A DNA stretch of 30,476 bases, from positions 1 to 30,476 of the IMG/VR virus record IMGVR_UViG_3300045988_142700. The stretch is one strand, 5' to 3'. The stretch's first letter is position 1, and each line of letters starts with the position of its first letter. Made by a program: the position numbers and the translations under genes. Positions 6,038-27,256 of the stretch are shown one piece after another. Source of the stretch: a virus. Under the pieces are notes generated by a model. The model saw only the letters and a program-made list of their open reading frames with translations. It searched no databases and was not told the origin of the DNA.

Positions 6038-6053
6038 TCAGGAGGAATATATA

Positions 6054-6344: not shown

Positions 6345-6789
6345 GTTATTTGAAGTTGATAAATATGCAGAGTGTTTAAAAGTTTTATCTTACAAAAAAC
6401 TGCCTGTAAAAGTTGGTTATGCGATTGCTGTAAATTTAAGAACATTAGAAGAAAAAAGCAAGCTTATCCTTGAACAGAGGACAAAGATACTTCAGGAAAA
6501 CTGTGAAAAAAATGAAGACGGGACACCAGCACTTGAAGAAATAATCGAAAAGACAGAAGACGGTGAGGTTATCGAAAAGGCTGAAAAAGATAAGAAATAT
6601 AAGTACAAATATAAAACGGAATCAGATGAGATTGCGGCATTAAAAAAGTATAAAGAGCTTCTTAATCTTGAAGAGGATATTAATGTAAAAACTATAAAAT
6701 ATGAAGATATTGAGCAGTGTGATTCTGAAAAATACGATAATCTTAACGGAAAAGAGATTGAATGTATGCTTTTCATGATTGAAGAGTAA
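6334..6789 (+). CDS. hypothetical acidic/lysine-rich helical protein (151 aa), possibly DUF1617-like
   Basis: RBS is GAGGAGG. Charged, predicted helical, with a KKYKYKYK stretch. It sits between Dit and Tal, as some small Firmicutes phage tail-module proteins do. Confidence 0.5.
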   Translation: MKIKLFEVDKYAECLKVLSYKKLPVKVGYAIAVNLRTLEEKSKLILEQRTKILQENCEKNEDGTPALEEIIEKTEDGEVIEKAEKDKKYKYKYKTESDEIAALKKYKELLNLEEDINVKTIKYEDIEQCDSEKYDNLNGKEIECMLFMIEE

Positions 6790-6807
6790 AAGTAAAAGGA
6801 GCGGCGT

Positions 6808-13455: not shown

Positions 13456-13650
13456 ATGGGAGCAAAATACACTTTGAGTCAACAGAAAGCTACGGCGAAA
13501 TACATGCATGATAAGCATGTGCTTCGTGTAGTTGTTTCAAGAGAAAAGGCAGAAGCATATAAAAAAATTGCAAAAGATTCAAATAAAAGTTTGAATCAGT
13601 TTGTAATAGATTGCATAAATAAATATATTGAAGAAATGAATTTGAAATAA
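13456..13650 (+). CDS. Arc/CopG-like ribbon-helix-helix DNA-binding protein
   Basis: 64 aa. KATAKYMHDKHVLRVVVSREKAEAYKKIAKDSNKSLNQFVIDCINKYIEE fits a strand-helix-helix pattern. It is a paralogue of 23018..23212. Confidence 0.55.
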   Translation: MGAKYTLSQQKATAKYMHDKHVLRVVVSREKAEAYKKIAKDSNKSLNQFVIDCINKYIEEMNLK

Positions 13651-13785
13651 TGTGAAAAATGTTGCGTAGCTTACACGTAACATACAAAAATATGTGAAAG
13701 CCTTGAAAAATGGCGGGTTACTGTTTATGTTCAGGAAGCAGCTGACAACGGCAAGTTCTAATTGTGAAAGTTTAAAAACATGCAT

Positions 13786-13819
13786 AAAAGCCGCAGTTCC
13801 GAGGGATTGCGGCTTTTTT
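13786..13819. terminator. bidirectional rho-independent terminator
   Basis: AAAAGCCGCA, 12-nt loop, TGCGGCTTTTTT. Confidence 0.6.
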
Positions 13820-13873
13820 ACATGTGTATAGTATCAGTAATAAAATACTGTGAAAATGTGTAAAAAAAGATGC

Positions 13874-13918
13874 GTAACTAGCAAGTAACTAACAAGTAAC
13901 TAACAGTCGTAACTAACA
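13874..13918. repeat. four direct GTAACTA(A/G)CA repeats (candidate integrase arm-type sites, attP)
   Basis: Copies start at 13874, 13885, 13896 and 13909, about 60 bp from the integrase stop codon. Confidence 0.55.
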
Positions 13919-13977
13919 AAAATAAGAGCATCCGGGACGACTAATTTTGGCTCGAATGCTCTTTATATTAACTATAC

Positions 13978-15036
13978 CTATTTGATTTTTGAAATTTCTT
14001 CGCGTAACTGTTGCATCGTTCTATGTGTATATACTTTTTCTGTTATATCTTCAATCTGATGTCCAACGATTAATTTTAAAATATATTCGTTCATATTAAC
14101 TGACTTAGCTTTTGTTATGAATGTATGTCGTGTATCATGTGGTTTATGATTTAATCCGAATTTTTTATTTATTTTATTTAGTCTTCCTCTGTATTTATCA
14201 TAAGTCATGTGCATTCCTTGCTGACCGTTTTCGTCATTAAAAAGATAATCACTGTTCAATGTTACTGCTTTTTTGTAATTCTTTTCAACAAGCTCAAATA
14301 TTGCAGGGTGTATAGGTACATATCTATTGCGTCCAGCTTCACTTTTTAAACCGCCAAAAAAAGTATGATTTTGCAAATCAACATCAGCAATTTTTAAGGT
14401 TGCAAGCTCCTGAGGTCTCCAGCCACTGTAAATTCCTATCAGGACCATGTCAACAAAAGGAAAGTCAACATTATGCCAAAGCAAGTTGATTTCTTCGTCA
14501 GAAAAAGGAATACGAATGATTGTTGCATCTTCACGCTTCACGTTTTCACTTAGAGCAGCATAGTCTTTATCGACAATGTCATATTTCAGAGCATATTTAA
14601 AAAGCTGGTTGTAAAGCGATTTCATTCGTGATTTTGTGCTGTTGCCGATATTGGCATTCTTAATTGTATCTTCAAGATGATTAGGGCGTATGTCTCTCAT
14701 ACGCATGTCGTGAAGCGGTTTTGAATGATTATAAGCACTCTTATATGTTCGTGTTGCTGACGGAGCAATCTTTTCAAAATGTTCATTGCTCCATTTTTCA
14801 TATACATCTGAAAAGGTAAATTTGTGAGAGTCAATGTCATACGGATTCTGATTATAATTAATCAAGGCGGCCAGAGCCTCCTGCTTTGTTGAATAATATC
14901 CGATAGTCATATAGAACTGTTTAGCTTTTCCTGTTTTACAGTCTATAGTCCATCCTTTTGTTTTTCTGGCTATCCACGGCTTACGACGTTTGCCTGAGAG
15001 TTTATAAACGCTTCCCATTCCATTAGCATTTTTCAT
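13978..15036 (-). CDS. int: tyrosine integrase with an AP2-like N-terminal arm-binding domain
   Basis: 352 aa. N-terminus GSVYKLSGKRRKPWIARKT...GYYSTKQEALAAL. Catalytic signatures are GWRPQEL, HDTRHTF and GH...TEKVYTH. The RBS is GGAGGTG. Confidence 0.9.
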   Translation of the reverse strand: MKNANGMGSVYKLSGKRRKPWIARKTKGWTIDCKTGKAKQFYMTIGYYSTKQEALAALINYNQNPYDIDSHKFTFSDVYEKWSNEHFEKIAPSATRTYKSAYNHSKPLHDMRMRDIRPNHLEDTIKNANIGNSTKSRMKSLYNQLFKYALKYDIVDKDYAALSENVKREDATIIRIPFSDEEINLLWHNVDFPFVDMVLIGIYSGWRPQELATLKIADVDLQNHTFFGGLKSEAGRNRYVPIHPAIFELVEKNYKKAVTLNSDYLFNDENGQQGMHMTYDKYRGRLNKINKKFGLNHKPHDTRHTFITKAKSVNMNEYILKLIVGHQIEDITEKVYTHRTMQQLREEISKIK

Positions 15037-15078
15037 ATTAAAGCACCTCCATTATTTATTGTAAAAAAGGGTATAAAA

Positions 15079-15107
15079 ATAACACCTACTTGCAAAAGCG
15101 GTGTTAT
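15079..15107 (-). terminator. hairpin terminator between the DUF4236 gene and int
   Basis: ATAACACC, 13-nt loop, GGTGTTAT, followed on the minus strand by a T-rich tract. Confidence 0.45.
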
Positions 15108-15215
15108 AGGTGCTATAATATAGCTTGCTTAGGGCGATATTATAGCATGAGCATCCGCTTATGTAAGTATCGGTAAATGCCTCTTGTGTTACCGCACAGG
15201 GGGCTTTTATTGGCT

Positions 15216-16202
15216 TTATCGGTCAATGCATTTCTTGCATGCTATGTATCCCATATTTTCAACATCTGTACGTTTGCCGGTGTAATATCCTAGATTTTCA
15301 GGCTTGATTTTCTTCACTTCGGCACATGTTTTTAAATGAAACTTGTTTGTTGATGTGTTTAAAACATAGTCAACATCTTTTTCAACATATATTTTTTCTT
15401 CCGGCTGTGGAGAATTGTCTTCGTTGATAATAACATTATTGTCAGAGCAGCCAGATTCTTGCTCATAAGTATTTACGTTATCATCAGTAGCAGGAGAAAT
15501 GTTTGTTTGTTCTTCTTGTTCATTATTGTTTTGATTTAATACATCAGAAGAGGATTCGTTGTTGCTTTTTATAGATTCTTGTTCAGCTGGTGCATTAGTT
15601 GTATATTCTTTATATTCGCTTGTTTGCTCTATATACGCAGAAGTAGTTTCGATATTTGAGGCAACTTGTTGCGGTGAATTATCTACAATCCATCCTGAAT
15701 TTATGATTGAAATTGCAACAATAACCCATATAGGAGTATACACACACATCAATGTTAAAGGCTTTTTTGGAATATTTTTGTTTTTATAAACCAATGCAGC
15801 GAGTAGAGCTATTCCCAAAGGCGGAAATAGAACAAACAAAAGCCATGATACTATTTTTTTATCTCTAATTGTTGAGTCGTCATCATCATTATTCATGTTC
15901 ATATTTGGTGAGTTATAATTGTTATATCCCGGATTAGATGCTCTTGGAGTTGAATTTTGATTCGCGGATGCGGAAAAGTTACTTGCTGTTGTATTTGTAT
16001 TGTTTTTGCCGTTGGATGTGCTATCTATATTTTGATAATACAAACCGGTTCCAGGAATTCCAACAGATGATGTTTTACGTCCGGAAGAATTAATAGTATA
16101 GTGCATTCCATTGTTACCAAAGGTAAATCCTACACTTTTTTTGTTTATGTTAAATTTTGCTCCAGACCCTAATTTTATTGACTTTCTAAATCTTAATGAC
16201 AT
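15216..16202 (-). CDS. membrane protein: N-terminal DUF4236-like domain, two TM helices and a C-terminal H/C3 zinc motif
   Basis: MSLRFRKSIKLGSGAKFNINKKSVGFTFG...GIPGTGLYY is DUF4236-like. The TM helices are WLLFVLFPPLGIALLAALV and VYTPIWVIVAISII. The C-terminus is KFHLKTCAEV...GYIACKKCI. The ATG at 16202 has an AGAGGTG RBS; an alternative ATG lies at 16220. Confidence 0.7.
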   Translation of the reverse strand: MSLRFRKSIKLGSGAKFNINKKSVGFTFGNNGMHYTINSSGRKTSSVGIPGTGLYYQNIDSTSNGKNNTNTTASNFSASANQNSTPRASNPGYNNYNSPNMNMNNDDDDSTIRDKKIVSWLLFVLFPPLGIALLAALVYKNKNIPKKPLTLMCVYTPIWVIVAISIINSGWIVDNSPQQVASNIETTSAYIEQTSEYKEYTTNAPAEQESIKSNNESSSDVLNQNNNEQEEQTNISPATDDNVNTYEQESGCSDNNVIINEDNSPQPEEKIYVEKDVDYVLNTSTNKFHLKTCAEVKKIKPENLGYYTGKRTDVENMGYIACKKCIDR

Positions 16203-16270
16203 ATCTGACACCTCTTTCATTTGAATAATTCTATAACATATAAATTAGGTTCAAAATTTTAAATAGTTAC

Positions 16271-16300
16271 TTGATATAATAATATTGTATATGATATAAT
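16271..16300 (+). promoter_or_regulatory. candidate early rightward promoter
   Basis: TTGATA, 18-nt spacer, TATAAT, followed by the inverted repeat ATTCAGG...CCTGAAT (16307-16332). Confidence 0.4.
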
Positions 16301-16473
16301 ATTAATATTCAGGAGTAGGCGTTTGCCTGAATTTATGCAACAGGGCAAGCTTGGAATTGGAGATGCTGTTAAGATGTCCTCAATTTGGACATATAACATA
16401 GTTCCGGCTGCACTGGCTAAACGTCAGGGAATGACGCTGGAAGAGTTACAGAAAAAAATTGAGGAGGTGAGAA

Positions 16474-16632
16474 ATGAGTGAGCATAAAAGAAAGCGGCTG
16501 ACTGCCAAATCAACAGTCAACCGCAATACATCAACAACAAACTTAACAGACAGCTTAAAAGCGATTTGCTTGACTGGCTGTCAACGGCGGGATTCGTCGT
16601 ATTCATTCTATCATCATTCACATTTATGTTAG
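16474..16632 (+). CDS. small basic hypothetical protein (52 aa); coding frame uncertain
   Basis: Strong RBS GAGGAGGTGAGAA before the ATG. An overlapping frame also looks protein-like (..LKSDLLDWLSTAGFVVFILSSFTFMLVH), so the true product is unresolved. Confidence 0.3.
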   Translation: MSEHKRKRLTAKSTVNRNTSTTNLTDSLKAICLTGCQRRDSSYSFYHHSHLC

Positions 16633-16725
16633 TACATTAATCAGGAGGTAAATTTTTATGATTTGAATTGAGCGAATTAAAAAACATATTAATTATATCT
16701 TAACATACAAGACAGGAGGCGTGCC

Positions 16726-16962
16726 ATGCAGGGCTTTAAATATGAACCAAATACAACAGTTCCTTACAATATAATTAACGGAAAAAAGATATTTAAGGTA
16801 GTTGCACCTTTTTATTCTGATGAAAAAGGTGTCATATATGGAAAATGCCCGGCTTGCGGCGGCAGTGTTTGCAGAATATGGAATCTTTCCAATTGCGGAA
16901 ATTGCGGCTGTGAAATAAGCTGGCACGCCATTCATGTTGATGGATGGGGAGATATTGACTAA
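16726..16962 (+). CDS. zinc-ribbon protein (78 aa)
   Basis: RBS is ACAGGAGG. Contains CPACGG...CGNCGC. Confidence 0.55.
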   Translation: MQGFKYEPNTTVPYNIINGKKIFKVVAPFYSDEKGVIYGKCPACGGSVCRIWNLSNCGNCGCEISWHAIHVDGWGDID

Positions 16963-16984
16963 GCATAATCGGAGGTAAACATTT

Positions 16985-17116
16985 ATGAGCGAAAAACTTA
17001 CACCGTCTGAAATAGAAAAATTCGCAAAAGAGTGGCTTGAAGTCACTGTCAGTCTTTCAAGATTTATAAAAAAGTCTGAATCAGAATCAGAAAAAATCAA
17101 AGAAAATCAAAGTTGA
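16985..17116 (+). CDS. small hypothetical protein (43 aa) whose 3' end runs into the iteron array
   Basis: RBS CGGAGG with ATG at 16985. Translation is MSEKLTPSEIEKFAKEWLEVTVSLSRFIKKSESESEKIKENQS. Confidence 0.35.
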   Translation: MSEKLTPSEIEKFAKEWLEVTVSLSRFIKKSESESEKIKENQS

Positions 17117-17190
17117 TAAAAGTTAGTAAAAGAATTTCAAAGTTAATCAGAGAAAATCAAAGAAAATCAGAGAAAATCAAAGTTAATAGA
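17081..17190 (+). repeat. array of 11 contiguous 10-bp direct repeats (candidate tubC-like centromere)
   Basis: Units start every 10 nt from 17081 to 17181. AGAAAATCA(A/G)-type units start at 17091, 17101, 17151, 17161 and 17171. AGTT(A/G)(A/G)T(A/C)(A/G)(A/G)-type units start at 17111, 17121, 17141 and 17181. Degenerate units start at 17081 and 17131. Confidence 0.8.
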
Positions 17191-17203
17191 ACAGGTGTTT
17201 AAA

Positions 17204-17476
17204 ATGAACAGAATTATGATTGGCGTTTTGATTACATTGCGTGACAGTTCGGCACTTGACTGTCTTACAGCTATGTCTGTATACGAGCTTGCTGATACAG
17301 AGCTCCTATATGGCATCTGTGTTAATACGATACACAAAAATGTTATGAAGCTGTTAGCTTCAGGCTTTATTGATAAAGGATTTAAAGACAGTCGTGCATT
17401 AACTTATTTTGTGACGCAAAAAGGACTTGATATATTAAATAAATTAAAGACAGGAGTGATAAAAGTTGAAAGATAG
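17204..17476 (+). CDS. small winged-helix DNA-binding protein (TubR-like centromere binder, by context)
   Basis: About 90 aa. MSVYELADTELLYGICVNTIHKNVMKLLASGFIDKGFKDSRALTYFVTQKGLDIL reads as a MarR/ArsR-like winged-helix-turn-helix. Its end overlaps the tubulin-like gene. An alternative GTG start lies at 17195. Confidence 0.6.
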   Translation: MNRIMIGVLITLRDSSALDCLTAMSVYELADTELLYGICVNTIHKNVMKLLASGFIDKGFKDSRALTYFVTQKGLDILNKLKTGVIKVER

Positions 17477-18494
17477 AATTGGTTTTGTCGCAGTCGGACA
17501 GGCTGGCGGCAACATTGGAAGATTATTTGAAGATAAAGGCTATTCAGTGTTATATCTTAACACTTCGGATGAAGACCTTGAGACAATCGACGGAGTACAT
17601 AAATATCATATCAGCGGCGGAGAGGGCTGTAATAAAGACAGGGATAAGGCTAAACAGCTTGTTGTAGATGACTTTGACAATATCGCCGAACGCATTGACG
17701 AGACAGTAAGTGCAGAGCTTTTATTTGTCATATTTGCTTCAGGCGGCGGAACAGGAAGCGGAGCGGGTCCAATGCTTGCCGACTTGTTAATTGACGATTC
17801 AAGAAATGTCGGAATAATTACAGTCATTCCGTCTGAAAGCGAAAGCATAAAGTCACAGATAAACAGTTATTATTGTTTTAATGAGATTTTTGCAATTGAG
17901 CAGACAGCGGCACTGTTTGTTCTTGACAATAACAAGGGCGAACGCCGTGAGCTTAATGAAAACTTTGTAAATGCTTTTAATTCATTTATTGAAATTCCGC
18001 AGAAATATAAATCAGAGAACGGAAATATTGACAAAGCGGAAATATTTGAATCGCTCAATTCGCACGGCATGGCAATAGTTGTAAGAAGTGAAAAAAATGA
18101 CGTTGCTGAGCTTGTTGCACAAATAGACAGCGGAGTATTTGCAATTCCGGAGCATGACAAGGCAGTTAAATATATAAGCTGTGCCTGTGGTGCCAGAATT
18201 AAAGATTTTTCTGACATAAAGAAAGCTGCCGGAAATCCATTTGATGAATTTCGTGCATATTCTGATGATGAGGCAGTGCTGCTTCTTTCAGGGCTTTCAT
18301 TTCCACTGACAAGAATTAATACAATACATGAGCTTATCAATGCAAATAAAGAATCTATTATAAACAGCACAAATATAAAAAGCGTGCAGCTTAAAGATGA
18401 TTTTGACTTTTTGAGTAAAAAGGTGAATGTGCCACAGACAAAGTCACAGCCAAAATCAAGGCGTGAAATTTTAGCAAAATATCTGAATAAATAG
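17466..18494 (+). CDS. tubZ: tubulin/FtsZ-superfamily GTPase (TubZ/PhuZ-like)
   Basis: TTG start 9 nt after AGGAG. VGQAGGNIG at aa 10-18 is T1-loop-like. GGGTGSG at aa 93-99 (nt 17742-17762) is the tubulin signature. Total 342 aa. Confidence 0.8.
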   Translation: MKDRIGFVAVGQAGGNIGRLFEDKGYSVLYLNTSDEDLETIDGVHKYHISGGEGCNKDRDKAKQLVVDDFDNIAERIDETVSAELLFVIFASGGGTGSGAGPMLADLLIDDSRNVGIITVIPSESESIKSQINSYYCFNEIFAIEQTAALFVLDNNKGERRELNENFVNAFNSFIEIPQKYKSENGNIDKAEIFESLNSHGMAIVVRSEKNDVAELVAQIDSGVFAIPEHDKAVKYISCACGARIKDFSDIKKAAGNPFDEFRAYSDDEAVLLLSGLSFPLTRINTIHELINANKESIINSTNIKSVQLKDDFDFLSKKVNVPQTKSQPKSRREILAKYLNK

Positions 18495-18503
18495 TAGGAA
18501 AGA

Positions 18504-18728
18504 ATGTGTGACATGAACCGGAAGAATTCAAACGAAACACAGTATGAATTTATGACATGTTATTGTTGCGGCAGAAGATTTTACTTTGGCGGCTATACGT
18601 ATGAAAGCTATGCATATAAGGCTTGTGACGGTTATCGCCGCTGTATCTTCTGCTCGTATAAGTGTCATCAGAAATTTCTGAAATATAAGGCAGAAAGAAA
18701 AAAGAATCATAAAAGAAAAAGAGGGTGA
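18504..18728 (+). CDS. Cys/His-rich small protein with a basic C-terminal tail
   Basis: 74 aa. CYCCGRRF...CIFCSYKCHQKF followed by KAERKKNHKRKRG. Tightly linked downstream of the tubZ-like gene. Confidence 0.5.
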   Translation: MCDMNRKNSNETQYEFMTCYCCGRRFYFGGYTYESYAYKACDGYRRCIFCSYKCHQKFLKYKAERKKNHKRKRG

Positions 18729-18732
18729 GCTT

Positions 18733-19509
18733 ATGGCTGAAAAGAGAATGTTTTCGACAAAAATAATAAATAGTGATCCATTCAAAGAGATGCCGCTGTC
18801 TGCACAGGCTTTGTACTTCCATCTCGGAATGAACGCAGACGACGAGGGATTTTTAAACAATGCAAAGAGCGTACAGCGTTCAATTCTTGCATCAGAGGAT
18901 GATTTAAAACTTCTGATTGCAAAAGATTTTATCATATCTTTTCCGTCAGGCGTTATCGTCATAAAGCACTGGAAGATGCATAATCAGATACAGGCAAGCC
19001 GCCTTAAACCTACGCAGTATACAGAGGAGAGAAGCATGCTTGCCGTTAAGGAAAACAAGGCGTACACGCTTAATTTAAACAATGTTGACAATTTGTCAAC
19101 ATCTGCTGACAATCGCATTGCTAGTGTAGAAGAGTGTAGTGTAGATAAGATTAGATTAGATGAGTGTAGTGTAGTGCAGTCTGCTGAAAATATGACATCA
19201 GCACATGCAGACACACAGCTTACACATTTGTCATATTCACCTATGACATGGCAGGAATATCAATTTCTTGCGGGTAAATACGGCAAAACACTTGTTGATT
19301 CAAAGATACAGCGTGCAAGCCAGTACAAAAACACATACAACTACGCAACAATTAAAAAATGGTGTGAAGAAGATGCACAGAAGCGTAGGCACAGTAATAA
19401 ATTTAATAACTTCAGTCAACGTGAAGTCGCTGATTTTGACGCTCTTGAATTAGAATTGATTGATAACACAATTGTTCAGGATTGCAGTTCAGGTGATGAC
19501 GGTGGGTAG
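18733..19509 (+). CDS. replication initiator / replisome-organizer-like protein
   Basis: The N-terminus KRMFSTKIINSDPFKEMPLSAQALYFHLGMNADDEGFLNN...VIVIKHWKMHNQIQ matches a widespread Firmicutes phage/plasmid replication-protein N-domain. An internal repeat cluster looks like an origin. Confidence 0.6.
   Translation: MAEKRMFSTKIINSDPFKEMPLSAQALYFHLGMNADDEGFLNNAKSVQRSILASEDDLKLLIAKDFIISFPSGVIVIKHWKMHNQIQASRLKPTQYTEERSMLAVKENKAYTLNLNNVDNLSTSADNRIASVEECSVDKIRLDECSVVQSAENMTSAHADTQLTHLSYSPMTWQEYQFLAGKYGKTLVDSKIQRASQYKNTYNYATIKKWCEEDAQKRRHSNKFNNFSQREVADFDALELELIDNTIVQDCSSGDDGG
19084..19174. repeat. origin-like cluster inside the replication gene
   Basis: Perfect palindrome GTTGACAATTTGTCAAC at 19084-19100. 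GAGTGTAGTGTAG occurs at 19132-19144 and 19162-19174. A TAGTGTAG copy lies at 19122-19129, and AGATTAGATTAGAT lies between the 13-mers. Confidence 0.55.
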
Positions 19510-19579
19510 CTGCTAAAGATAAATATTAATAAAAATATATTAATTTTAATTGTATTTTGCATGGAGAGGAGAAAAAGGA

Positions 19580-19882
19580 TTGAAAACAAAGGCATATATC
19601 AGTCTGCCAGTAACAGGTACAGATGATTACAGGGAAAGAGCTTTTTTGATTGATAAAAAATTGAGGGAGTGGGGATATTCGGTTATAAATCCCGTCGTTG
19701 TATGTGATTCGCTTCCTGCGAATGAGACAACACACGAACAGTATATGAGCATTTGCCTACCGCTCATTGATATGAGTGATATTGTATTTTTTGCGGACGG
19801 CTGGGAGAAGAGCAAAGGCTGTACGCTTGAAATGTGCAGGGCAATGCAGAAAAAGAAAATGATTGTATTTATAGGGGGCTAA
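19580..19882 (+). CDS. DUF4406-like (nucleoside 2-deoxyribosyltransferase-like fold) protein
   Basis: TTG start after GGAGAGGAG. KAYISLPVTGTDDY...INPV...DIVFFADGWEKSKGCTLE fits the DUF4406 pattern. Confidence 0.45.
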   Translation: MKTKAYISLPVTGTDDYRERAFLIDKKLREWGYSVINPVVVCDSLPANETTHEQYMSICLPLIDMSDIVFFADGWEKSKGCTLEMCRAMQKKKMIVFIGG

Positions 19883-19883
19883 T

Positions 19884-20075
19884 ATGGGTGATTCAGCTAA
19901 ACAGGAGATATGTGCAATACTTGACTTGCTACACGGCTCACTTGTAAGAAACGGCGTGAGCATGGCAACAAACGAAAAAGGAGATTTGATATTTTTCGAT
20001 ACAGCGGCATATGTCAATAGCGGCAAGAAGACTATTGATGGATTTAAGGTTAATATTAATAATCTTGTTGAATAA
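19884..20075 (+). CDS. hypothetical protein (63 aa), intact copy of a duplicated small gene
   Basis: RBS GGGGG. The 3' 123 nt are repeated at 20903-21009. Confidence 0.5.
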   Translation: MGDSAKQEICAILDLLHGSLVRNGVSMATNEKGDLIFFDTAAYVNSGKKTIDGFKVNINNLVE

Positions 20076-20111
20076 GGCTCGTTTCAGCGGAAAGGAAATG
20101 GACATAGATTT

Positions 20112-20837
20112 ATGATAGTACATTGTTTATTTGAACAGTCAGGAACATTCAAGAACGCTTTCAAGAAGTATGGAATTGAAGCCTACGACTATGATATTCA
20201 GAATGAATTTAACGAAACCGACTATGTTACTGACCTTTTTAAAGAGATAGAAGGGGGGCATCAAGGCGAGCCGAGTTTGTTTGATAAGATAAGCCCTGAT
20301 GATTTGATATTTGCATTTTTCCCTTGCATAAGGTTTGAAAATCAGATAATGCTGTGGCTCAGAGGACAGTCGGCAAGTCAGAAAAAATGGTCTTTAGAAA
20401 AGAAATGCGAATTTGATATGAATTTGCTTAAAGAAGTTTCACTTATGTATGATTTAGTAAACAAATTGTTTATTATTTGCATGAGAAAAGGATTGAAGCT
20501 GGTAATGGAGAATCCTTATTCAGAAGAGCATTTTTTAAGGCGATATTGGTGTTGTTCCCCGGCGGTAATTGACAGAGATAGAAGAGATAATGGAGATTAC
20601 TTTAAAAAGCCTACACAGTATTGGTTTTTGAATTGCGAGCCACAGAACAATCTTGTTTTTGAGCCAATTAAGGATGTCGGGATATATGCTAAATGGGAGC
20701 ATCGAACAATGAATGATTATCGTGTTACTGGAGCGAGTAATGTTAAAACAGCAAGGTCAATGATACACCCACAGTACGCAGATAGATTTATCAGGGAATA
20801 TATTCTTGATGAGGAAATATGGAGAGCTAAACAATGA
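20112..20837 (+). CDS. divergent DNA cytosine-C5 methyltransferase-like protein
   Basis: 241 aa. CLFEQSGTF resembles motif I (FxGxG), FFPC resembles motif IV (PC) and VMENP resembles motif VI (ENV). No adjacent restriction endonuclease gene. Confidence 0.4.
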   Translation: MIVHCLFEQSGTFKNAFKKYGIEAYDYDIQNEFNETDYVTDLFKEIEGGHQGEPSLFDKISPDDLIFAFFPCIRFENQIMLWLRGQSASQKKWSLEKKCEFDMNLLKEVSLMYDLVNKLFIICMRKGLKLVMENPYSEEHFLRRYWCCSPAVIDRDRRDNGDYFKKPTQYWFLNCEPQNNLVFEPIKDVGIYAKWEHRTMNDYRVTGASNVKTARSMIHPQYADRFIREYILDEEIWRAKQ

Positions 20838-20971
20838 AAGACGAAACAAAGCAGGAAATACAGATTCTACTTGACCTACTCAAAGGCAGTCTTACAAAAA
20901 ATGGCGTGAGCATGGCAACAAACGAAAAAGGCGATTTAATCTTTTTCGATACAGCGGCAAGAAGACTGTAG
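20834..20971 (+). pseudogene. truncated, frameshifted paralogue of 19884..20075
   Basis: MKDETKQEIQILLDLLKGSLTKNGVSMATNEKGDLIFFDTAA, then a frameshift caused by a 16-nt deletion between two AGCGGCA copies. The remaining homologous 3' end (to 21009) is out of frame. Confidence 0.6.
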
Positions 20972-21143
20972 ATGGATTTAAGGTTAATATTAATAATCTT
21001 GTTAAATAAAGCCCGGTGCTTTTTTAATAGCCAGAAAAGGAGAATATGTCTCGAAAGAGACTTCAAGAATGGCAATACAGGCAATTGAAACTGTTCAGAA
21101 ATTATCTGAGAGGAAAATGACAATAGATGCTCTTTAAAACTAT

Positions 21144-21380
21144 ATGCAGTTTGAGGATGAATGTATTGAAAAAGGTTTTACGCTTAAAAGCGTGATTGAA
21201 GCCAGAGATAAGCAGATAGCAAAGAAAATTGAGACTTTTAATGGACAAGCGACATGTCCTAATTGCAAATATATTTTCGGAGCAATTGACGTCATTAAGA
21301 ATTTAATAGCGTGGCATATGCCATATTGCAAAGATTGCGGGCAGAAATTGGATTGGAGTGATGAAGATGAGGTTGATTGA
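21144..21380 (+). CDS. zinc-ribbon protein (78 aa)
   Basis: CPNC...CKDC. There is no RBS at the ATG, and the frame continues upstream through a TAA (see findings). Confidence 0.45.
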   Translation: MQFEDECIEKGFTLKSVIEARDKQIAKKIETFNGQATCPNCKYIFGAIDVIKNLIAWHMPYCKDCGQKLDWSDEDEVD

Positions 21381-21666
21381 TGCGGACAAGGTTATAAATA
21401 TATTGAAAGATAGGGCAACAAATGAAGCGGTTTGCGGATATATGACAGCTTACGATGTTACAAATAGCATTATAGATGAAATTGATGAGCAACCAGTCGC
21501 TTATGATGTAGATAAGGTTGTAGAACGGTTGGAAGAACTGCGAGAACTTGATGCGTGTGACTTTGATAATTGTCCTATCGAAGATATCCACTGTTGTGAT
21601 TGCACTCAAAAAAGAATGGCAGAACGAGCAATCGAGATTGTGAAAGGTGGTGGAATAGATGGCTAA
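21367..21666 (+). CDS. hypothetical phage protein (MRLIDAD... family)
   Basis: GGAG 8 nt upstream of the ATG at 21367. The N-terminus MRLIDADKV recurs in Firmicutes phages. Confidence 0.5.
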   Translation: MRLIDADKVINILKDRATNEAVCGYMTAYDVTNSIIDEIDEQPVAYDVDKVVERLEELRELDACDFDNCPIEDIHCCDCTQKRMAERAIEIVKGGGIDG

Positions 21667-21925
21667 GATATTAAATAAATGCCCTATATGTGGTGGAAGA
21701 TTAGAATACTCGGCTTTAATGCAATTCACTAAAGATTATCAAATCAAATTAAATGGTAGATTATCCAAAAACTCCAAAAATAGTGATGTATCACCTATGG
21801 AATGTGGTTTCATAAGTTGTACTGCTTGCAATTTCCATACTAATTGCGATTTGGAATGTGAAGAAAATCACAATATAAAAATATATCAAAAGAATGGAGT
21901 ATATCTGTATGAAGATGAACGATAG
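21659..21925 (+). CDS. zinc-ribbon protein (88 aa)
   Basis: CPICGG...CTAC, with RBS AAAGGTGG. Confidence 0.5.
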   Translation: MAKILNKCPICGGRLEYSALMQFTKDYQIKLNGRLSKNSKNSDVSPMECGFISCTACNFHTNCDLECEENHNIKIYQKNGVYLYEDER

Positions 21926-22418
21926 ATATTTATTCAAGGCGAATAGAGTTGATAACGGAGAATGGGTGCAAGGCTATTTAGTGTATGATAACAGGGATGA
22001 GATGTACAGGATAATTATAGAGATTCATTATTCCACAGGAACTTGTATAACAACGGATAATGCCCCAAGAGTTGATGCAGCCACTATCTGCCGATGCACA
22101 GGCTCGAAAGACAAGAACGGTAATCTGATTTGGGAGAATGATATTGTTGACTTCTTAGGGCATAAAGGGACTGTCGTATTTGAATGTGGCAGTTTTGGCA
22201 TTGCATATAAAACACCTATAGATTGGAATGGAATAGAAGCAAATATTAAGCCAATAACCGGTTGCGATAATCGTTTATATGCTTGCGAAAATGATAATTA
22301 TATATCATTGTGGGAAATCTATTGGAATTTTAATGATGAGGATGATTCGGTAAACACAGTAGAGGTTATCGGCAACATATTTGACAATCCTGAATTATTA
22401 GAAAGTGAGGAAAAGTAA
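21909..22418 (+). CDS. YopX-family protein
   Basis: YLFKANRVDNGEWVQGYL...TGSKDKNGNLIWENDIV...VIGNIFDNPELLE is the typical YopX pattern. Confidence 0.75.
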   Translation: MKMNDRYLFKANRVDNGEWVQGYLVYDNRDEMYRIIIEIHYSTGTCITTDNAPRVDAATICRCTGSKDKNGNLIWENDIVDFLGHKGTVVFECGSFGIAYKTPIDWNGIEANIKPITGCDNRLYACENDNYISLWEIYWNFNDEDDSVNTVEVIGNIFDNPELLESEEK

Positions 22419-22616
22419 TGAATTGAGTAATTTTATGTGGAAGTATTCTTGATATTAAATATCAGGGTGAGGGAAATCATCCGACTTACTCGATAGAAAG
22501 AGTATCAGCGTTGATTCTTATGAAATGAGTGCAAGACAATTGAACACTGACAATTTAATATAACGGATATTACAAAAAATAAACTAAAAATTATTAAAAT
22601 AATTTGTTAAAAACTA

Positions 22617-22645
22617 TTGACATATGGATAACCATATAGTATAAT
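22617..22645 (+). promoter_or_regulatory. perfect consensus sigma-A promoter with a palindrome in the spacer
   Basis: TTGACA, 17-nt spacer, TATAAT. The spacer contains ATATGG-ATAA-CCATAT. Confidence 0.65.
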
Positions 22646-22677
22646 ATAGACATGTTAAGGAAAGGAGGAAAAAACAG

Positions 22678-22797
22678 ATGAGCAAAAAAAAGAAAAAGAG
22701 CCATAATTATGAATTGGCAAAGTTAATTATTAATGCGGTAATCGCCTCTGCTGCATTAATAACGGCAATCGCCAATCTTATTATGGCTCTAAGGTAA
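22678..22797 (+). CDS. 39-aa lysine-rich, single-TM peptide (type I toxin-like or small membrane effector)
   Basis: RBS AAAGGAGG. Translation is MSKKKKKSHNYELAKLIINAVIASAALITAIANLIMALR. Confidence 0.5.
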   Translation: MSKKKKKSHNYELAKLIINAVIASAALITAIANLIMALR

Positions 22798-22803
22798 AGG
22801 CAA

Positions 22804-22819
22804 GGGAGGGAAACCTCCC
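22804..22819. terminator. GC-rich hairpin after the small peptide gene
   Basis: GGGAGG-GAAA-CCTCCC, followed by AACCCTTTTAT. Confidence 0.4.
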
Positions 22820-22857
22820 AACCCTTTTATATTATAGCACATCTGTTGAAATATAAT

Positions 22858-23031
22858 ATGAAAAATTTATTAAGATTTTCAGAGATTTTTTTAATTGTAG
22901 CGTGGGTGATATTTTTAACAAACAGGAATGTACCAACAAGCATATTATTGTTATTGGCAGCTATATATATGCTCGTTGAAGTGATTCCAATGATAAGAGA
23001 GGAAGTGAAAAAGAGACGTGCCAAAAGGTAA
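22858..23031 (+). CDS. small two-TM membrane protein (57 aa)
   Basis: MKNLLRFSEIFLIVAWVIFLTNRNVPTSILLLLAAIYMLVEVIPMIREEVKKRRAKR. Confidence 0.45.
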   Translation: MKNLLRFSEIFLIVAWVIFLTNRNVPTSILLLLAAIYMLVEVIPMIREEVKKRRAKR

Positions 23032-23212
23032 TCCGACAGCTCAAACGAAAGCTTCAGCAAAATATCAGGCAAAGGTAGGATATATCACAAAAGGTTTCAA
23101 GATGAAAAAGGAACTTGCTGATGAGTTCGCTCTTGCCTGTGAAAAGGCTGGAGTAAGCCAGTCCTCGGTCATAACTAATTTCATGAGAGAATTTATAGAA
23201 AAAAATAAGTAA
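23018..23212 (+). CDS. Arc/CopG-like ribbon-helix-helix protein (paralogue of 13456..13650)
   Basis: GTG start. TKASAKYQAKVGYITKGFKMKKELADEFALACEKAGVSQSSVITNFMREFIEK aligns along its full length with the other RHH protein. Confidence 0.5.
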   Translation: MPKGNPTAQTKASAKYQAKVGYITKGFKMKKELADEFALACEKAGVSQSSVITNFMREFIEKNK

Positions 23213-23220
23213 ATTAAAGT

Positions 23221-23257
23221 CCGTTACCATTGTTAATTGATGGTAGCGGGCTTTTTT
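23221..23257 (+). terminator. rho-independent terminator
   Basis: 10-bp stem CCGTTACCAT/ATGGTAGCGG, 9-nt loop, then GCTTTTTT. Confidence 0.7.
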
Positions 23258-23278
23258 CGTATGGAGAGGAGTATTTAA

Positions 23279-23923
23279 TTGAGAAGAATAAAATATTTTG
23301 AAGGACAGCATGAGACAAAGCCTATAAAAGACCAGAAAACAATAGATGCACTGTATGGGTATTTTCTGAAAAAAATCGACAATGCAAAATCAGACTGTAA
23401 AAAATATCAGTGGGAGCGTAACTATATGCTTGTGCATATCGGGCTTAATACAGCTTTCAGGGCAGAGGATTTGCTACAGTTAAGGGTTATTGATGTTTAC
23501 AAGGGTTATATTCAGATTAAGGAAAACAAGACCGGGAAAATGCAGAATTTCAAGATGAATAAACAGCTGCATCAAGATGTGCTTGCTTATATTGATAAAT
23601 ATAAACTTGGAAAATATGATTACTTATTCAGAGGACAGAAACGCTATGTGGCAGGAAAGGCTTATATATATCCTATAAACAGGCAGATGGGACATAGGAT
23701 TATATCAAGTGCAGGAGAAGCGATAGGAATACCATATACATTCGGGCTTCATTCACTAAGAAAAACATTTGGCTATCAATATATAAAACGTGGCGGCAAT
23801 GTCATAACTCTGATGAAGATGTATAACCATGATTCGCCTGATGTCACGCTAAGATATGTGTGCTGGGGAAAAGAGGACGCAGAGCATGACAGGACAGCCA
23901 TGTATATAGGACCGAAAAAGTAA
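23279..23923 (+). CDS. small tyrosine recombinase (catalytic domain only, 214 aa)
   Basis: TTG start 7 nt after GGAGAGGAG. Motifs are AFRAEDLLQL (Arg I), KTGK, HSLRKTF (H-x-x-R) and NHDSPDVTLRYV (His/Tyr). Confidence 0.8.
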   Translation: MRRIKYFEGQHETKPIKDQKTIDALYGYFLKKIDNAKSDCKKYQWERNYMLVHIGLNTAFRAEDLLQLRVIDVYKGYIQIKENKTGKMQNFKMNKQLHQDVLAYIDKYKLGKYDYLFRGQKRYVAGKAYIYPINRQMGHRIISSAGEAIGIPYTFGLHSLRKTFGYQYIKRGGNVITLMKMYNHDSPDVTLRYVCWGKEDAEHDRTAMYIGPKK

Positions 23924-23977
23924 TAAAAATAAGTTATCCACAAAGAAATAACGAGAAATCAACTTACGGTATCATTT

Positions 23978-24006
23978 TTGCAATATACAAATATATGCGA
24001 TACAAT
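23978..24006 (+). promoter_or_regulatory. candidate promoter for the late regulator
   Basis: TTGCAA, 17-nt spacer, TACAAT. Confidence 0.4.
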
Positions 24007-24078
24007 TAAAACACAGGGAACAGGCAGATTTAAAGGTTAAATAAAAGTGGGATAAAAAAATATACACTTTTAGGGATT

Positions 24079-24537
24079 ATGTATCATTTTTTAAGGGGTG
24101 AGAGATTGAGAGAGGCAACATATGCAGAAAAGAAAAAATATCTTGAAAGATATTATATATTAAAAAAAGAAGAACAGAATTTTGATACAGAAATAGCAGT
24201 TATAAATGATATGTATGGGTTGCATGCTGTTACAATAAATGGATTGCCAAAGTCACACAATCAGGCAGATTTATCAGATTCGATTATTAAAATTGACGAG
24301 AAATGTGATAATCTACGCAGAGAATACATAAAGAGAAGAGCAAAGGCTGTGCTTGCGGGAGTTGAGATATTAAATAAGATAAATGAACTTGACGACGAGG
24401 ATAATAAAAGAATATTGATTCAGCGACATGTGCTCATGCAAAGCATGAAGAGCATAGCAGAGAAAGAGAGTTACAGCCGCAGTGGATTAGATAAGAGATA
24501 TAGAAAAGCTGTCAACAGTATTAAATTAAAAATCTAA
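24079..24537 (+). CDS. sigma-70 region-4-like / ArpU-RinA-DUF1492-type late transcription regulator
   Basis: About 145-152 aa, just upstream of the packaging module. The C-terminus ILIQRHVLMQSMKSIAEKESYSRSGLDKRYRKAVNSI looks like a region-4 HTH. The likely start is the TTG at 24106, after AAGGGGTGAG. Confidence 0.5.
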   Translation: MYHFLRGERLREATYAEKKKYLERYYILKKEEQNFDTEIAVINDMYGLHAVTINGLPKSHNQADLSDSIIKIDEKCDNLRREYIKRRAKAVLAGVEILNKINELDDEDNKRILIQRHVLMQSMKSIAEKESYSRSGLDKRYRKAVNSIKLKI

Positions 24538-24614
24538 AAAAAATAAAGAGTGGACACCAGTAGACATTTATATATGTTAATATGTAATTGCTTCATAAAT
24601 GTTTACCAACAGAC

Positions 24615-24649
24615 AAAGCAGAGCGGAGTAAAATCCAATCTGCTTTTTT
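24615..24649 (+). terminator. hairpin plus T-run
   Basis: AAAGCAGA, 16-nt loop, TCTGCTTTTTT. Confidence 0.45.
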
Positions 24650-24651
24650 AT

Positions 24652-24721
24652 GCACTTTGGAGCAATGGCAGCTCGGCAGTTCCCTTCACTGTAGATTCCG
24701 GTTCGATTCCGGAAAGGTGCA
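24652..24721 (+). tRNA. tRNA-like cloverleaf (anticodon CCU/Arg if the loop is the standard 7 nt), non-canonical in detail
   Basis: Acceptor stem GCACTTT/AAGGTGC. D arm GAGC-AATGGCA-GCTC. Anticodon arm GCAGT-TCCCTTC-ACTGT. Variable loop AGAT. T arm TCCGG-TTCGATT-CCGGA. Deviations: one linker nt at positions 8/9, C33 and T37. Confidence 0.45.
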
Positions 24722-24740
24722 ATTACAAGGGCGGTTGAAT

Positions 24741-25079
24741 ATGACAGAATTACAGATTATATATGTAAAAGATTGTATAAAAGCAAAAGATATGCACAGG
24801 TTTTATATCTGGAGTGAGTGGCTTAAAGTAAGAAAAAGAGTTTTGGATTTAGACAAAGACGAGTGTCAGGATTGCAAAGCAAAAGGGATATATACAAAAG
24901 CAACGACTGTACATCATATTAATCATGTTAAAAATCGTCCTGACTTGGCACTTGAAATATATACAAATGATGGAGACACACGCAGACGCAATCTAGTAAG
25001 TCTTTGTCGCGATTGCCATGAGATTCGGCATGGCAGAAAGTACAGCGACAGGACGGCACTAACCGCTGAACGTTGGTAA
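24741..25079 (+). CDS. HNH endonuclease (packaging-associated)
   Basis: ECQDCKAKG...VHHINH...NLVSLCRDCHEIRHG, directly upstream of the terminase genes. Confidence 0.85.
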   Translation: MTELQIIYVKDCIKAKDMHRFYIWSEWLKVRKRVLDLDKDECQDCKAKGIYTKATTVHHINHVKNRPDLALEIYTNDGDTRRRNLVSLCRDCHEIRHGRKYSDRTALTAERW

Positions 25080-25287
25080 TCCCCCCGGTTGAAAAAATTG
25101 AAAAATTTTTTGACTTACCAAAGACCGGTGCAAAACTCGACAATTCAGATTTTTCCGCACATGTGCGTAAAATGATTTTTTCACGAAAAAGAGGGTTAGA
25201 GTTTCTTATTTTTTATGTAGAGTTATTTAGAGTAAAAAACGACATTTCAATTATAACTTTTGAAATTGCTTGAAAGGGGGCTTTTTC

Positions 25288-25611
25288 ATGGCAACAATTT
25301 CACAAAAAATCAGCAAATCGTTAAAAGAACAGCTTAAACGTAAGGGTGCGGACGAATATCACTTTGAAAAGCTCGTTGATGATTACTGTATGCTTTTTGA
25401 AACAAAAACGAAATTGCAGCAAGACATTTCAGAAAACGGCGTTGTATTAACAGAATATAACGTAAAAGGCAATGAAGTGCATAAGACAAATCCTGCGGTT
25501 GCAGAAGTTACAAGAGTAGTCAAGGCAATGTTGAACATTCTTGATAAATTAGGCATTAATGCGGATGATAACATAAAGGACGGCGACGAAGATAATGATT
25601 GCGGATTGTAG
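25288..25611 (+). CDS. terS: terminase small subunit (P27 family)
   Basis: ATG after AAGGGGG. 107 aa, LFETKTKLQQDISENGVVL...NPAVAEVTRVVKAMLNILDKLG. Confidence 0.8.
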   Translation: MATISQKISKSLKEQLKRKGADEYHFEKLVDDYCMLFETKTKLQQDISENGVVLTEYNVKGNEVHKTNPAVAEVTRVVKAMLNILDKLGINADDNIKDGDEDNDCGL

Positions 25612-27256
25612 AATTGATGATTATATAAATTTAATACGTGGAAGACCTTATCCGATTTGCGAAGAACAGTTCCAGCTCTGTGATTTGGTGGAAGATGTAT
25701 TTGCAACAGAAGATGTGTATGTTGATTCAGGACAGCTTGATAAATATATGCAGTTTCAAAGATATTTTCCATTTAATTTACTGCCATGGGAGCAGTTCTG
25801 TTTTGCTCTTCATAATTGTGTATACCGCAAATCTGACAATCAGCTTCGATTTCCGAGACTTGTAATTTACGTCGGGCGTGGAAGCGGTAAAAACGGTTAT
25901 CTGTCGTTTGAAGATTTTGCTCTTTTAACGCCGGTGAACGGAATAAAAAATTATAATATTGACATTTTTGCCATGTCTGAAAAACAGGCGAAGATGTCTT
26001 TTTTTGACGTTTACGATATGCTTGAAGCTAATAAAAGTGTTATGAAAAAACATTTTTACTGGACGAAAGAGGTTATAAAAAATATTAAAACCGGCTCAGA
26101 ACTTGCATTCAACACGTCAAGTCCAAAAACAAAAGATGGTTTCAGACCCGGAAAAGTTGACTTCGACGAATATCATGCGTATGACAGCATGAAGCTTGTT
26201 GACGTTGCAGTAACAGGTCTTGGAAAAAAGCCGCATCCTCGTCAGACTATTATAACAACAGACGGAGATGTAAGAGATGGACCGCTTGATACAGAGATAG
26301 CAAAGTGTAAACAGATTTTAAAACGTGATATTCCTGACAACGGCACATTGCCGTTTATGTGCAGAATTCCGGATAAAACGCTGATCAACGATAAGAAAAA
26401 TTGGACAATGGCTAATCCGTCATTTATTTACTTTCCGCATTTGCAAAATGAGATGAACATCGAATTTGCAGATTATAAGCTCGATCCAATCGGACACGCT
26501 TCTTTTGCAACGAAACGCTGTAATTGTCCGCTGGGAATAAAAGAAGCAGCGGTTACAGATTGGGAGAATATAGCAAAGACAAATATTGTTATTCCAGAAT
26601 TTGACGCAGGAACGGCAGCAGTCGGAGGCATTGACTACGCAAGCACAGAGGACTTTGTTGCCGCAGGGCTTCTTGTGATTAAAGACAATGTTGATTATTG
26701 GATAACACACAGCTGGGTTTGCAAAGAATCTAAGGATTTGCCTCGTATTAAAGCACCGCTTTTGGAATGGGAAGATGCAGGATTGTTGACTTTTGTTGAT
26801 GGTCCGGAGATTCCGCCGGAGACTCCTGCAGCATGGCTTGAGAATATGCAGAGACACTTTAACATTATAAAAGTGGGAATTGATAAATACAGATATACGC
26901 TTTTATCAAAGGCTCTTACTGAGTCGGGATTTTCAAGCGGAAAAGACGGTAATATCTCACTTATACGACCGTCTGATGAAATGATGATTATTCCTACGAT
27001 TTCGTCACTGTTCAACAATCATCAAATCGCATGGGGTGACAGTCCGATTATGCGGTGGTATTGCAACAATGCAAAAAGAGAGACTTCTTCAAATGGGAAT
27101 ATGACGTATGCCAAGATTGAGCCTAAGTCACGAAAAACAGACGGCTTTAAGGCTTTTGTGGCGGCTGAAATATTAAGGGATGAACTTATAAGCTACAATG
27201 AAATTAGCCAGGACATATTGCAAAGCACTGATACTTCGATGTGCTGGACATATTAA
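25595..27256 (+). CDS. terL: terminase large subunit
   Basis: 553 aa. Walker A-like VGRGSGKNG, FDEYH, and a C-terminal nuclease region. The layout matches Terminase_1. Confidence 0.9.
   Translation: MIADCRIDDYINLIRGRPYPICEEQFQLCDLVEDVFATEDVYVDSGQLDKYMQFQRYFPFNLLPWEQFCFALHNCVYRKSDNQLRFPRLVIYVGRGSGKNGYLSFEDFALLTPVNGIKNYNIDIFAMSEKQAKMSFFDVYDMLEANKSVMKKHFYWTKEVIKNIKTGSELAFNTSSPKTKDGFRPGKVDFDEYHAYDSMKLVDVAVTGLGKKPHPRQTIITTDGDVRDGPLDTEIAKCKQILKRDIPDNGTLPFMCRIPDKTLINDKKNWTMANPSFIYFPHLQNEMNIEFADYKLDPIGHASFATKRCNCPLGIKEAAVTDWENIAKTNIVIPEFDAGTAAVGGIDYASTEDFVAAGLLVIKDNVDYWITHSWVCKESKDLPRIKAPLLEWEDAGLLTFVDGPEIPPETPAAWLENMQRHFNIIKVGIDKYRYTLLSKALTESGFSSGKDGNISLIRPSDEMMIIPTISSLFNNHQIAWGDSPIMRWYCNNAKRETSSNGNMTYAKIEPKSRKTDGFKAFVAAEILRDELISYNEISQDILQSTDTSMCWTY

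Follow-up and report, generated by a model that had tools for sequence, protein, structure and literature searches.

To our knowledge, studies of type III (tubulin-based) DNA segregation have been confined to large Bacillus plasmids and a single giant plasmid prophage. The centromere of such TubZRC systems, tubC, is split into blocks of direct repeats upstream of tubR (PMC6009700). A filament of another kind is known from the integrated prophage CGP3, whose DNA, once induced, requires the actin-like AlpAC system to replicate efficiently (PMC4446434). Here we report the computational analysis of IMG/VR virus record IMGVR_UViG_3300045988_142700, positions 1 to 30,476 (the whole stretch of 30,476 nucleotides, hereafter the window), in which a TubZRC module lies between the gene of a full-length tyrosine integrase and that of a second, small tyrosine recombinase (Table 1). 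In the literature, we came across no account of TubZ in integrative phages of small size or in phages of Lachnospiraceae, and a 2026 paper on IME8 names tubZ only as a marker of a separate plasmid. The parts of the window are of known kinds, and the context of TubZRC in small integrative phages is new.

We favour, with moderate confidence, a joint explanation in which the window represents a temperate, integrating Lachnospira siphovirus in its circular state, excised or replicating, and the TubZRC of this phage serves the replication of extrachromosomal phage DNA, not the maintenance of a plasmid prophage.

The TubZRC module and the replication gene

An earlier note, written from the letters of the window, had described a TubZRC-like module at 17081-18494, and this reading was borne out by the matches of both proteins to TubZ and TubR of the Clostridium botulinum phage c-st and by the presence of 10-bp iterons. 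The tubC array consists of two well-matched blocks (3 + 4 units) with three degenerate units between them, and the AATCARAG motif occurs six times in the array and once in the rest of the window. For TubR, whose translation most likely starts at 17204 rather than 17195, a profile of 36 homologues matched c-st TubR (PDB 6tey) at 2.6e-18 as well as 4asn, 4aso and 3m8e, and hhalign against c-st TubR (CST190) gave a probability of 99%. TubZ matched c-st TubZ (PDB 4xcq/3v3t) at 1e-32; its T1 and GGGTGSG boxes are invariant, with G93-G99 unchanged in 28 homologues.

The AlphaFold2 (AF2) model of TubZ (predicted local distance difference test score, pLDDT, 85.7) found its best structural match in 3v3t, with a template modelling (TM) score of 0.88. 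The tail in this model, which may engage TubR-tubC, comprises a disordered linker (303-331) followed by a conserved terminal helix (332-340). By family membership, tubC-tubR-tubZ is a genuine and complete type III (TubZRC) system. The PHROGs database carries this TubZ family (phrog_17961) under the function label 'unknown'. In one genome of the deletion lineage described below, L018 (= L029), TubZ has 335 amino acids (aa) instead of 342.

Downstream of tubZ, the same note had placed a replication initiator with an internal origin. The initiator (phrog_5708) was confirmed, as were repeats inside its gene (15 bp, 3.5 copies, 19122-19174), whereas the role of these repeats is less firm, and they may form the replication origin. 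Lambda O and SPP1 gene 38 are examples of initiator genes that contain an origin. Upstream of tubR, a scan restricted to consensus patterns found no promoter-like site between 16962 and 17204, and the open reading frames (ORFs) in this direction are co-directional with the early genes.

Distribution and gene context of the TubZ subfamily

The window's TubZ has at least 515 homologous clusters, and the best 120 of these are all at least 49% identical to it. Gene context was analysed for 94 loci, which represent 42 TubZ lineages at 90% TubZ identity and are located on phage-sized viral contigs or in prophages within long chromosomal contigs. TubR adjoins TubZ in all but one of the lineages (41 of 42). 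An iteron array of the (A)ATCAGAG type, with 10-bp or 20/30-bp units, lies 190-800 bp upstream of tubZ in 29 of the 40 lineage representatives, and this core is kept although the TubZ proteins are only ~50% identical. In at least 26 of 37 lineages, tubZ is immediately followed by the ORF of a replication initiator, and these initiators come from at least five unrelated families.

Integrase genes were sought up to 10 kb upstream in those lineages with at least 8 kb of upstream flank (n = 32). At least 24 of them carry an upstream integrase, of the large serine recombinase type in 18. Downstream of tubZ, 25 of 29 lineages have a small tyrosine recombinase. The layout of integrase, tubRZ and small recombinase recurs in prophages within chromosomes. 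The TubZ homologue P0067 lies in the complete 6.8-Mb chromosome of Anaerocolumna sp. AGMB13025 with a flanking serine integrase, and another homologue, P0088, occurs in 242 blocks of the contig collection on contigs of up to 1.66 Mb, with the same host flank of ATP-binding cassette (ABC) transporter genes in the four loci displayed. Among 50,697 phage records, TubZ matched only c-st, D-1873 and phage G, at ~27% identity. The combination of an integrase with TubZRC is a family trait and not a one-off hybrid. In many small integrating prophages of human gut Lachnospiraceae and their relatives, the replication module routinely includes a compact TubZRC whose 10-bp centromere motif is conserved.

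Integration into the Lachnospira chromosome

The phage integrates in the chromosome of Lachnospira, at the 3' end of a GGGtGRT-family gene, by means of a lambda-type tyrosine integrase. The exact 352-aa integrase is present on 19 contigs, and host genes (GGGtGRT, GlmS, topoisomerase and Asd) adjoin it in a 161.6-kb gut scaffold (L016) and in a Lachnospira metagenome-assembled genome (L020). Over 13730-16335, the window and L016 are 100% identical, and over 16334-23297 their identity is 99.94%. The other prophage end is joined to energy-coupling factor (ECF) transporter, PDDEXK and flagellin genes in L026 (203 kb), L027, L030, L031 and L032. Empty attB sites were found in four further contigs (L108-L111), where GGGtGRT is directly followed by the ECF-S and PDDEXK genes. 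A plasmid prophage is extrachromosomal and not integrated; here, attL or attR junctions with Lachnospira DNA were seen in seven contigs, in addition to the empty attB. The ends of the window share a 55-bp direct repeat, and its capsid gene spans their junction, so that it is a circular assembly of 30,421 unique bp; it has no host flank.

Identity with attR (L016) begins at 13730, and identity with attL (L026, L030 and L031) stops at 13831, with host-type mismatches in attL from ~13765. Therefore, the crossover most likely took place within 13730-13764, in the last ~35 nt of the GGGtGRT gene. The full-length integrase with arm repeats, as first proposed, is sustained by the matches to PF00589 and phrog_1 and by the repeats at 13874-13919. 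These GTAACTAACA repeats are kept in L056 and L048, whose att region is only ~71-73% identical to that of the window, which supports their role as arm-type sites. The integrase has a catalytic and a SAM-like core-binding domain (PF00589, PF14659 and PF22022); no Pfam arm-binding domain was found at E 0.01, and the N-terminal arm-binding domain is a predicted one.

One integrated copy, L032 (ZEEV15-1 scaffold_1128), has window positions 21679-25509 joined to 5804-11079 and is without the terminase through tape-measure genes. Occupying the same att site, it appears to be a defective remnant.

Loss of the immunity region

Relative to the integrated prophage L016, the window is missing exactly 1,737 bp at 16334/16335 (L016 6965-8701), a feature that the earlier note had overlooked. 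The removed genes encode an ImmR-like repressor (phrog_4, weak HTH_26), an ImmA M78 metalloprotease (phrog_87), a Cro-like helix-turn-helix (HTH) protein (phrog_3) and a 62-aa ORF. The deletion also takes the first 22 codons of a 70-aa HTH ORF, which is hence truncated in the window. Repeats at the end points were sought as a mark of site-specific excision, and this origin was rejected, since the end points have no flanking repeats and share only a 2-bp microhomology, so that the deletion was an illegitimate one.

The identical deletion junction was found in L017, L018 and L019, from three independent assemblies (ERZ28638492, ERZ1755504 and ERZ1755059). The deletion variants are all in the circular attP form, and every immunity-positive copy with a visible junction is integrated (L016, L022 and L025). 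With the deletion, the early genes come to lie in the reading direction of the region's best promoter-like site (16271-16300), a near-consensus sequence that may act as the early promoter of the variant. Having lost the repressor, protease and Cro region, the deletion variant has probably become virulent and insensitive to immunity, in the manner of lambda vir. This lineage provides a case, from nature, of a temperate gut phage apparently freed from its own repressor.

The small tyrosine recombinase

The second recombinase had been described as consisting of a catalytic domain only, and the sequence and fold comparisons agree with this description. The catalytic set RKHRHY is intact (R61, K84, H158, R161, H184 and Y193), and its residues are kept in 37-39 of 39 relatives and in all 30 sequences of a second set. 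In place of a full N-terminal core-binding domain, the enzyme has only two helices (19-34 and 39-55) ahead of the catalytic domain. The best fold matches were XerH, XerA, IntI and Cre, with TM scores of 0.38-0.45 when normalized to full-length XerH or Cre and of 0.65-0.70 for catalytic-domain-only structures.

A 65%-identical recombinase is encoded by L106, an integrated prophage without TubZ, and homologues of 24-42% identity occur in ~220 GenBank phage records, mostly integrated streptococcal prophages. More distant copies are present in the Thermus phages P23-45 and G20c, which are lytic. Homologues are found in phages without TubZ (L106, PH10 and other phage records), and the small recombinase is thus not a partner of TubZ but a phage gene of its own with a wide distribution. 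We found no paper that describes a 'second integrase' beside the packaging genes.

Among its relatives, the recombinase is more conserved (the top 120 matches are 59-99% identical) than TubZ (mostly ~50%), which suggests a strong constraint on this uncharacterised enzyme. In L009-L012, L062, L067 and L092, two tandem tyrosine recombinases (~331-391 aa and ~184 aa) lie downstream of tubZ, with a LexA_DNA_bind ORF preceding them in L009-L012. The second-recombinase locus is therefore variable and sometimes duplicated. A 14-nt AT-rich pair at 22907/23396 was considered as a recombinase site and judged to be a chance occurrence.

The role of TubZRC and alternative explanations

The position of tubC-tubR-tubZ directly before the replication initiator fits a role in extrachromosomal replication. 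In the mechanism that we propose, TubR would coat the 10-bp tubC iterons on the excised or infecting circular genome, and TubZ filaments, coupled to TubR-tubC, would move or position this genome within the cell. Judging from the gene order, the time of action would be that of replication following infection or induction, and possibly also the stage that precedes integration. By analogy with AlpAC of CGP3, the result could be a better replication or distribution of phage genomes. The small recombinase probably carries out a Xer/Cre-like site-specific reaction on the replicating phage DNA, for instance resolving or interconverting multimers before cos packaging. The parts of this explanation that were directly observed are the integration, the TubZRC membership, the conserved synteny and the deletion. 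The earlier note had offered, as its second option, that the filament and the recombinase act in lytic genome handling, and the evidence favours the filament part of that option.

Several points weigh against this explanation. Within 10 kb upstream of tubZ, 8 of the 32 lineages show no integrase. Close TubZ relatives were absent among 72,556 plasmids (best match, 29.5% identical), which is weak evidence because PLSDB holds few Lachnospiraceae plasmids. The deletion variant was seen only as a circle, and a plasmid-like state would look the same. The proposed timing of TubZRC action is read from the gene order. In plasmids, TubR represses its own promoter at tubC, and a weak, unrecognised promoter in the window could allow expression in the lysogen. 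As for the target of the small recombinase, no k-mer of at least 10 nt is common to the 500-bp flanks of its gene in at least 4 of 11 recombinase clusters, and the window holds no convincing palindromic site or inverted repeats for it.

One alternative, which we consider unlikely, is that initiating replication or organising the origin, as reported for the TubZ-type protein RepX, is the main task of TubR and TubZ, rather than moving DNA. It would account for the fact that tubC-tubR-tubZ adjoins the initiator whichever family this initiator belongs to, in at least 26 of the 37 lineages, and Bacillus cereus TubZ 4ei7, which was deposited as "plasmid replication protein RepX", is among both the sequence and the fold matches. 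A replication role was reportedly first described for RepX of pXO1 and for ORF156/157 of the pBtoxis mini-replicon. However, a conserved GTPase box, a C-terminal tail and an array of 10-bp iterons characterize a cytomotive segregation system, and the phage encodes an initiator of its own, whose gene contains candidate iterons.

It is improbable, in our estimate, that the phage has a dual lysogeny, either integrated or as a plasmid prophage partitioned by TubZRC, with the small recombinase resolving plasmid dimers. All the parts needed for such a life are present and intact, the closest characterised TubZRC is that of the plasmid prophage c-st, and elements proposed to oscillate between integrated and episomal states have been mentioned (PMC7969092). 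In addition, contig L021 ends exactly at the att core, so that two junction forms may coexist in the sample. Against these points stand the immunity-positive copies L016, L022 and L025, all integrated, and the homologues with visible host flanks, which lie in integrated prophages, most lineages having an upstream integrase. The plasmid search described above returned no close TubZ relative, the small recombinase is not linked to TubZ, and the consensus-pattern scan revealed no promoter belonging to tubRZ itself. A switch between integrated and plasmid lysogeny was the leading idea of the earlier note, which proposed junctions as a check. The contigs contain attL, attR and empty attB, and the circular attP form is that of immunity-deleted variants; with integrated junctions in several independent scaffolds and no plasmid relatives, the idea was not upheld. 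Partition genes together with a second recombinase should not be taken as evidence of a plasmid lifestyle.

A more far-reaching view, to which we give little credence, has two parts that must hold together: TubZRC is a core organiser of how extrachromosomal genomes are replicated and inherited in a large clade of integrating phages of gut Clostridia that all share the ATCAGAG-type centromere, and the repressor-less lineage persists in Lachnospira as an episome partitioned by TubZRC. If it were true, a temperate phage would have been turned into a plasmid-like element by a single deletion.

It is highly improbable that the small recombinase is a FimB/FimE-like DNA invertase or a regulatory switch, unrelated to replication or multimer resolution. 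Its size of ~200 aa, weak matches to tyrosine-type DNA invertase models (NF007371, 3.2e-7) and the position of its gene just upstream of the late regulator speak for such a role, but the scores stay far below the family cut-offs (30 against 222 bits), no convincing inverted repeats surround any segment, and the best folds are XerH and XerA. The identity as a FimB/FimE-type invertase was therefore rejected, and the inversion switch, which the earlier note had named as a finding that would refute its own idea, found no support in the eleven variant genomes, where no inversion occurs.

Finally, we attach hardly any probability to the immunity-deleted genome being kept as a plasmid-like episome through TubZRC and its own replicon instead of being a virulent phage: the same junction recurs in three assemblies, always in the attP form, L018 has further changes (a methyltransferase deletion and the 335-aa TubZ) that speak for a persisting lineage, and the replicon and partition genes are intact, but the late, packaging and lysis genes are all intact too with no recognisable repressor left over them, a near-consensus promoter now reads into the early genes, any replicating cos phage is expected to give a circular assembly, and the SPAdes coverage is low (~2.4-2.6x, from contig names, and not comparable with the host).

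The presence of TubZRC in so many integrating prophages raises the question of what use a DNA-segregation machine is to an integrating phage, and the window represents a small, tractable system for answering it.

Other features of the window

The genes of the window follow a siphovirus-type order. Up to 13108, head-tail, tape-measure, tail, holin and endolysin genes lie on the + strand. Two small ORFs follow, and then the integrase and a DUF4236 membrane protein on the - strand. After the DUF4236 gene, the + strand continues with the early genes, the late regulator, HNH, terminase, portal, protease and capsid genes.

Table 1. Coordinates of the features discussed, as positions in the window.
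Feature	Position	Strand	Evidence or remark
attP block common to host: last ~35 nt of the host GGGtGRT-family gene plus terminator hairpin	13730..13831		
Arm-type repeats, four GTAACTAACA units, ~11-bp spacing	13874..13919		Between att core and int; Tandem Repeats Finder (TRF) period 11, 4 copies
Tyrosine integrase, full-length, 352 aa	13978..15036	-	PF00589 4.8e-16, SAM_3 1.4e-6, phrog_1 5e-53
DUF4236 membrane protein, lysogeny side	15216..16220	-	PF14020 1.2e-18
Best promoter-like site of the region	16271..16300	+	TTGATA, 18 nt, TG-TATAAT; 11/12 matches, extended -10
tubC-like centromere	17079..17184	+	~eleven 10-bp iterons (AATCARAGWW)
TubR, winged-helix centromere-binding protein, 90 aa	17204..17476	+	TubR structure profile matches
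TubZ, tubulin/FtsZ-fold GTPase, 342 aa	17466..18494	+	PF00091, TubZ_C_3
Cys-rich 74-aa ORF between tubZ and rep	18504..18728	+	Called as a gene in L021; no match in family searches
Replication organiser, DnaD-like helicase-loader family	18733..19509	+	phrog_5708 1.7e-60
Small tyrosine recombinase, 214 aa	23279..23923	+	PF00589 2.7e-16, phrog_216 2e-39
Putative late-gene transcription regulator	24079..24537	+	phrog_36 1.7e-8
HNH gene	24741..25079		Downstream of the late regulator
Terminase	25270..27256		After the HNH gene

Two ~130-bp direct repeats (19949-20081 and 20899-21015), which are 81% identical, lie on either side of a DNA methyltransferase gene (20112-20837) and correspond to the paralogous small ORFs 19884-20075 and 20834-20971. 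Variant L018 is without exactly the segment between these repeats, and the methylase is therefore a present/absent cassette.

A consensus sigma-70 promoter (TTGACA, 17 nt, TATAAT) with the spacer palindrome ATATGG-ATAA-CCATAT is located at 22617-22650. Downstream of it, 22678-23255 encodes a 39-aa Lys-rich hydrophobic peptide, a 61-aa membrane protein and a 64-aa Arc/ribbon-helix-helix (RHH)-like protein, and a terminator hairpin at ~23220-23258 closes the unit. The whole unit (22617-23255) could be a moron, or a toxin-antitoxin-like or exclusion cassette that is expressed in lysogens. The window has two 64-aa Arc/RHH-like ORFs with the N-terminal motif 'KA-AKY' in common, one at the attP-proximal end of the late region (13456-13650) and the other just upstream of the small recombinase (23018-23212).

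ARAGORN called a tRNA-Arg(CCT) at 24651-24722, between the late regulator and HNH, which is doubtful, as the Rfam tRNA model stays below the gathering score window-wide; across the window, no Rfam family reached its gathering score. A megablast search of the 13-25 kb part against the 50,697 phage records gave no match, and a PADLOC scan of the accessory ORFs gave nothing useful.

Comparison with known systems

The closest relative in organisation is the system of c-st, which has the same order tubC-tubR-tubZ, a TubZ of the same fold (TM 0.88, 26-27% identity), a homologous TubR, split direct-repeat arrays upstream of tubR and a flexible C-terminal TubZ tail. The two differ in that c-st is a 186-kb plasmid prophage, whereas the window represents a 30-kb integrating phage. 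The iterons here have a 10-bp period with the core ATCAGAG, in contrast to TTGAC and A/TGAA in c-st; the MerR-type TubY gene that follows tubZ in c-st is replaced by a replication initiator; and a separate promoter is not evident here.

With the TubZ (RepX)-TubR systems of pBtoxis, pXO1 and pBM400, the module shares the TubZ GTPase, a winged-helix TubR (4aso, 3m8e and 4asn) and iteron blocks upstream of tubR. The tubC of pBtoxis is split 3 + 4, as in the window, and the repeats of these plasmid systems are 12 bp long. They belong to large low-copy plasmids, however, and their TubZ proteins are longer (~380-480 aa) and only 17-29% identical.

P1, with its Cre-lox and parABS, and phage-plasmids in general resemble the window in having a centromere-based segregation system and a simple tyrosine recombinase on a phage. 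In contrast, P1 lives without chromosomal integration and expresses par in lysogeny, whereas the phage of the window demonstrably integrates and its recombinase has no link with the partition genes.

The second tyrosine recombinase of streptococcal and other Firmicutes phages, such as PH10 ORF28, belongs to the same family (phrog_216), has the same size and lies between the early and the HNH-terminase genes. In PH10, the regulator, small integrase, HNH and terminase follow the order of the window, and the phage's own integrase is encoded at the end of its genome. These recombinases are 24-42% identical to that of the window and come from phages without TubZ, and their function is uncharacterised there too.

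AlpAC of CGP3 in Corynebacterium glutamicum (PMC4446434) has no homology with TubZRC, its filament being of the actin fold instead of the tubulin fold, its gene order is another one, and CGP3 is cryptic. It is nevertheless a plasmid-type cytoskeletal motor with a DNA adaptor encoded by a chromosomally integrated prophage, and we adopt it as the functional model for the TubZRC of this Lachnospira phage.

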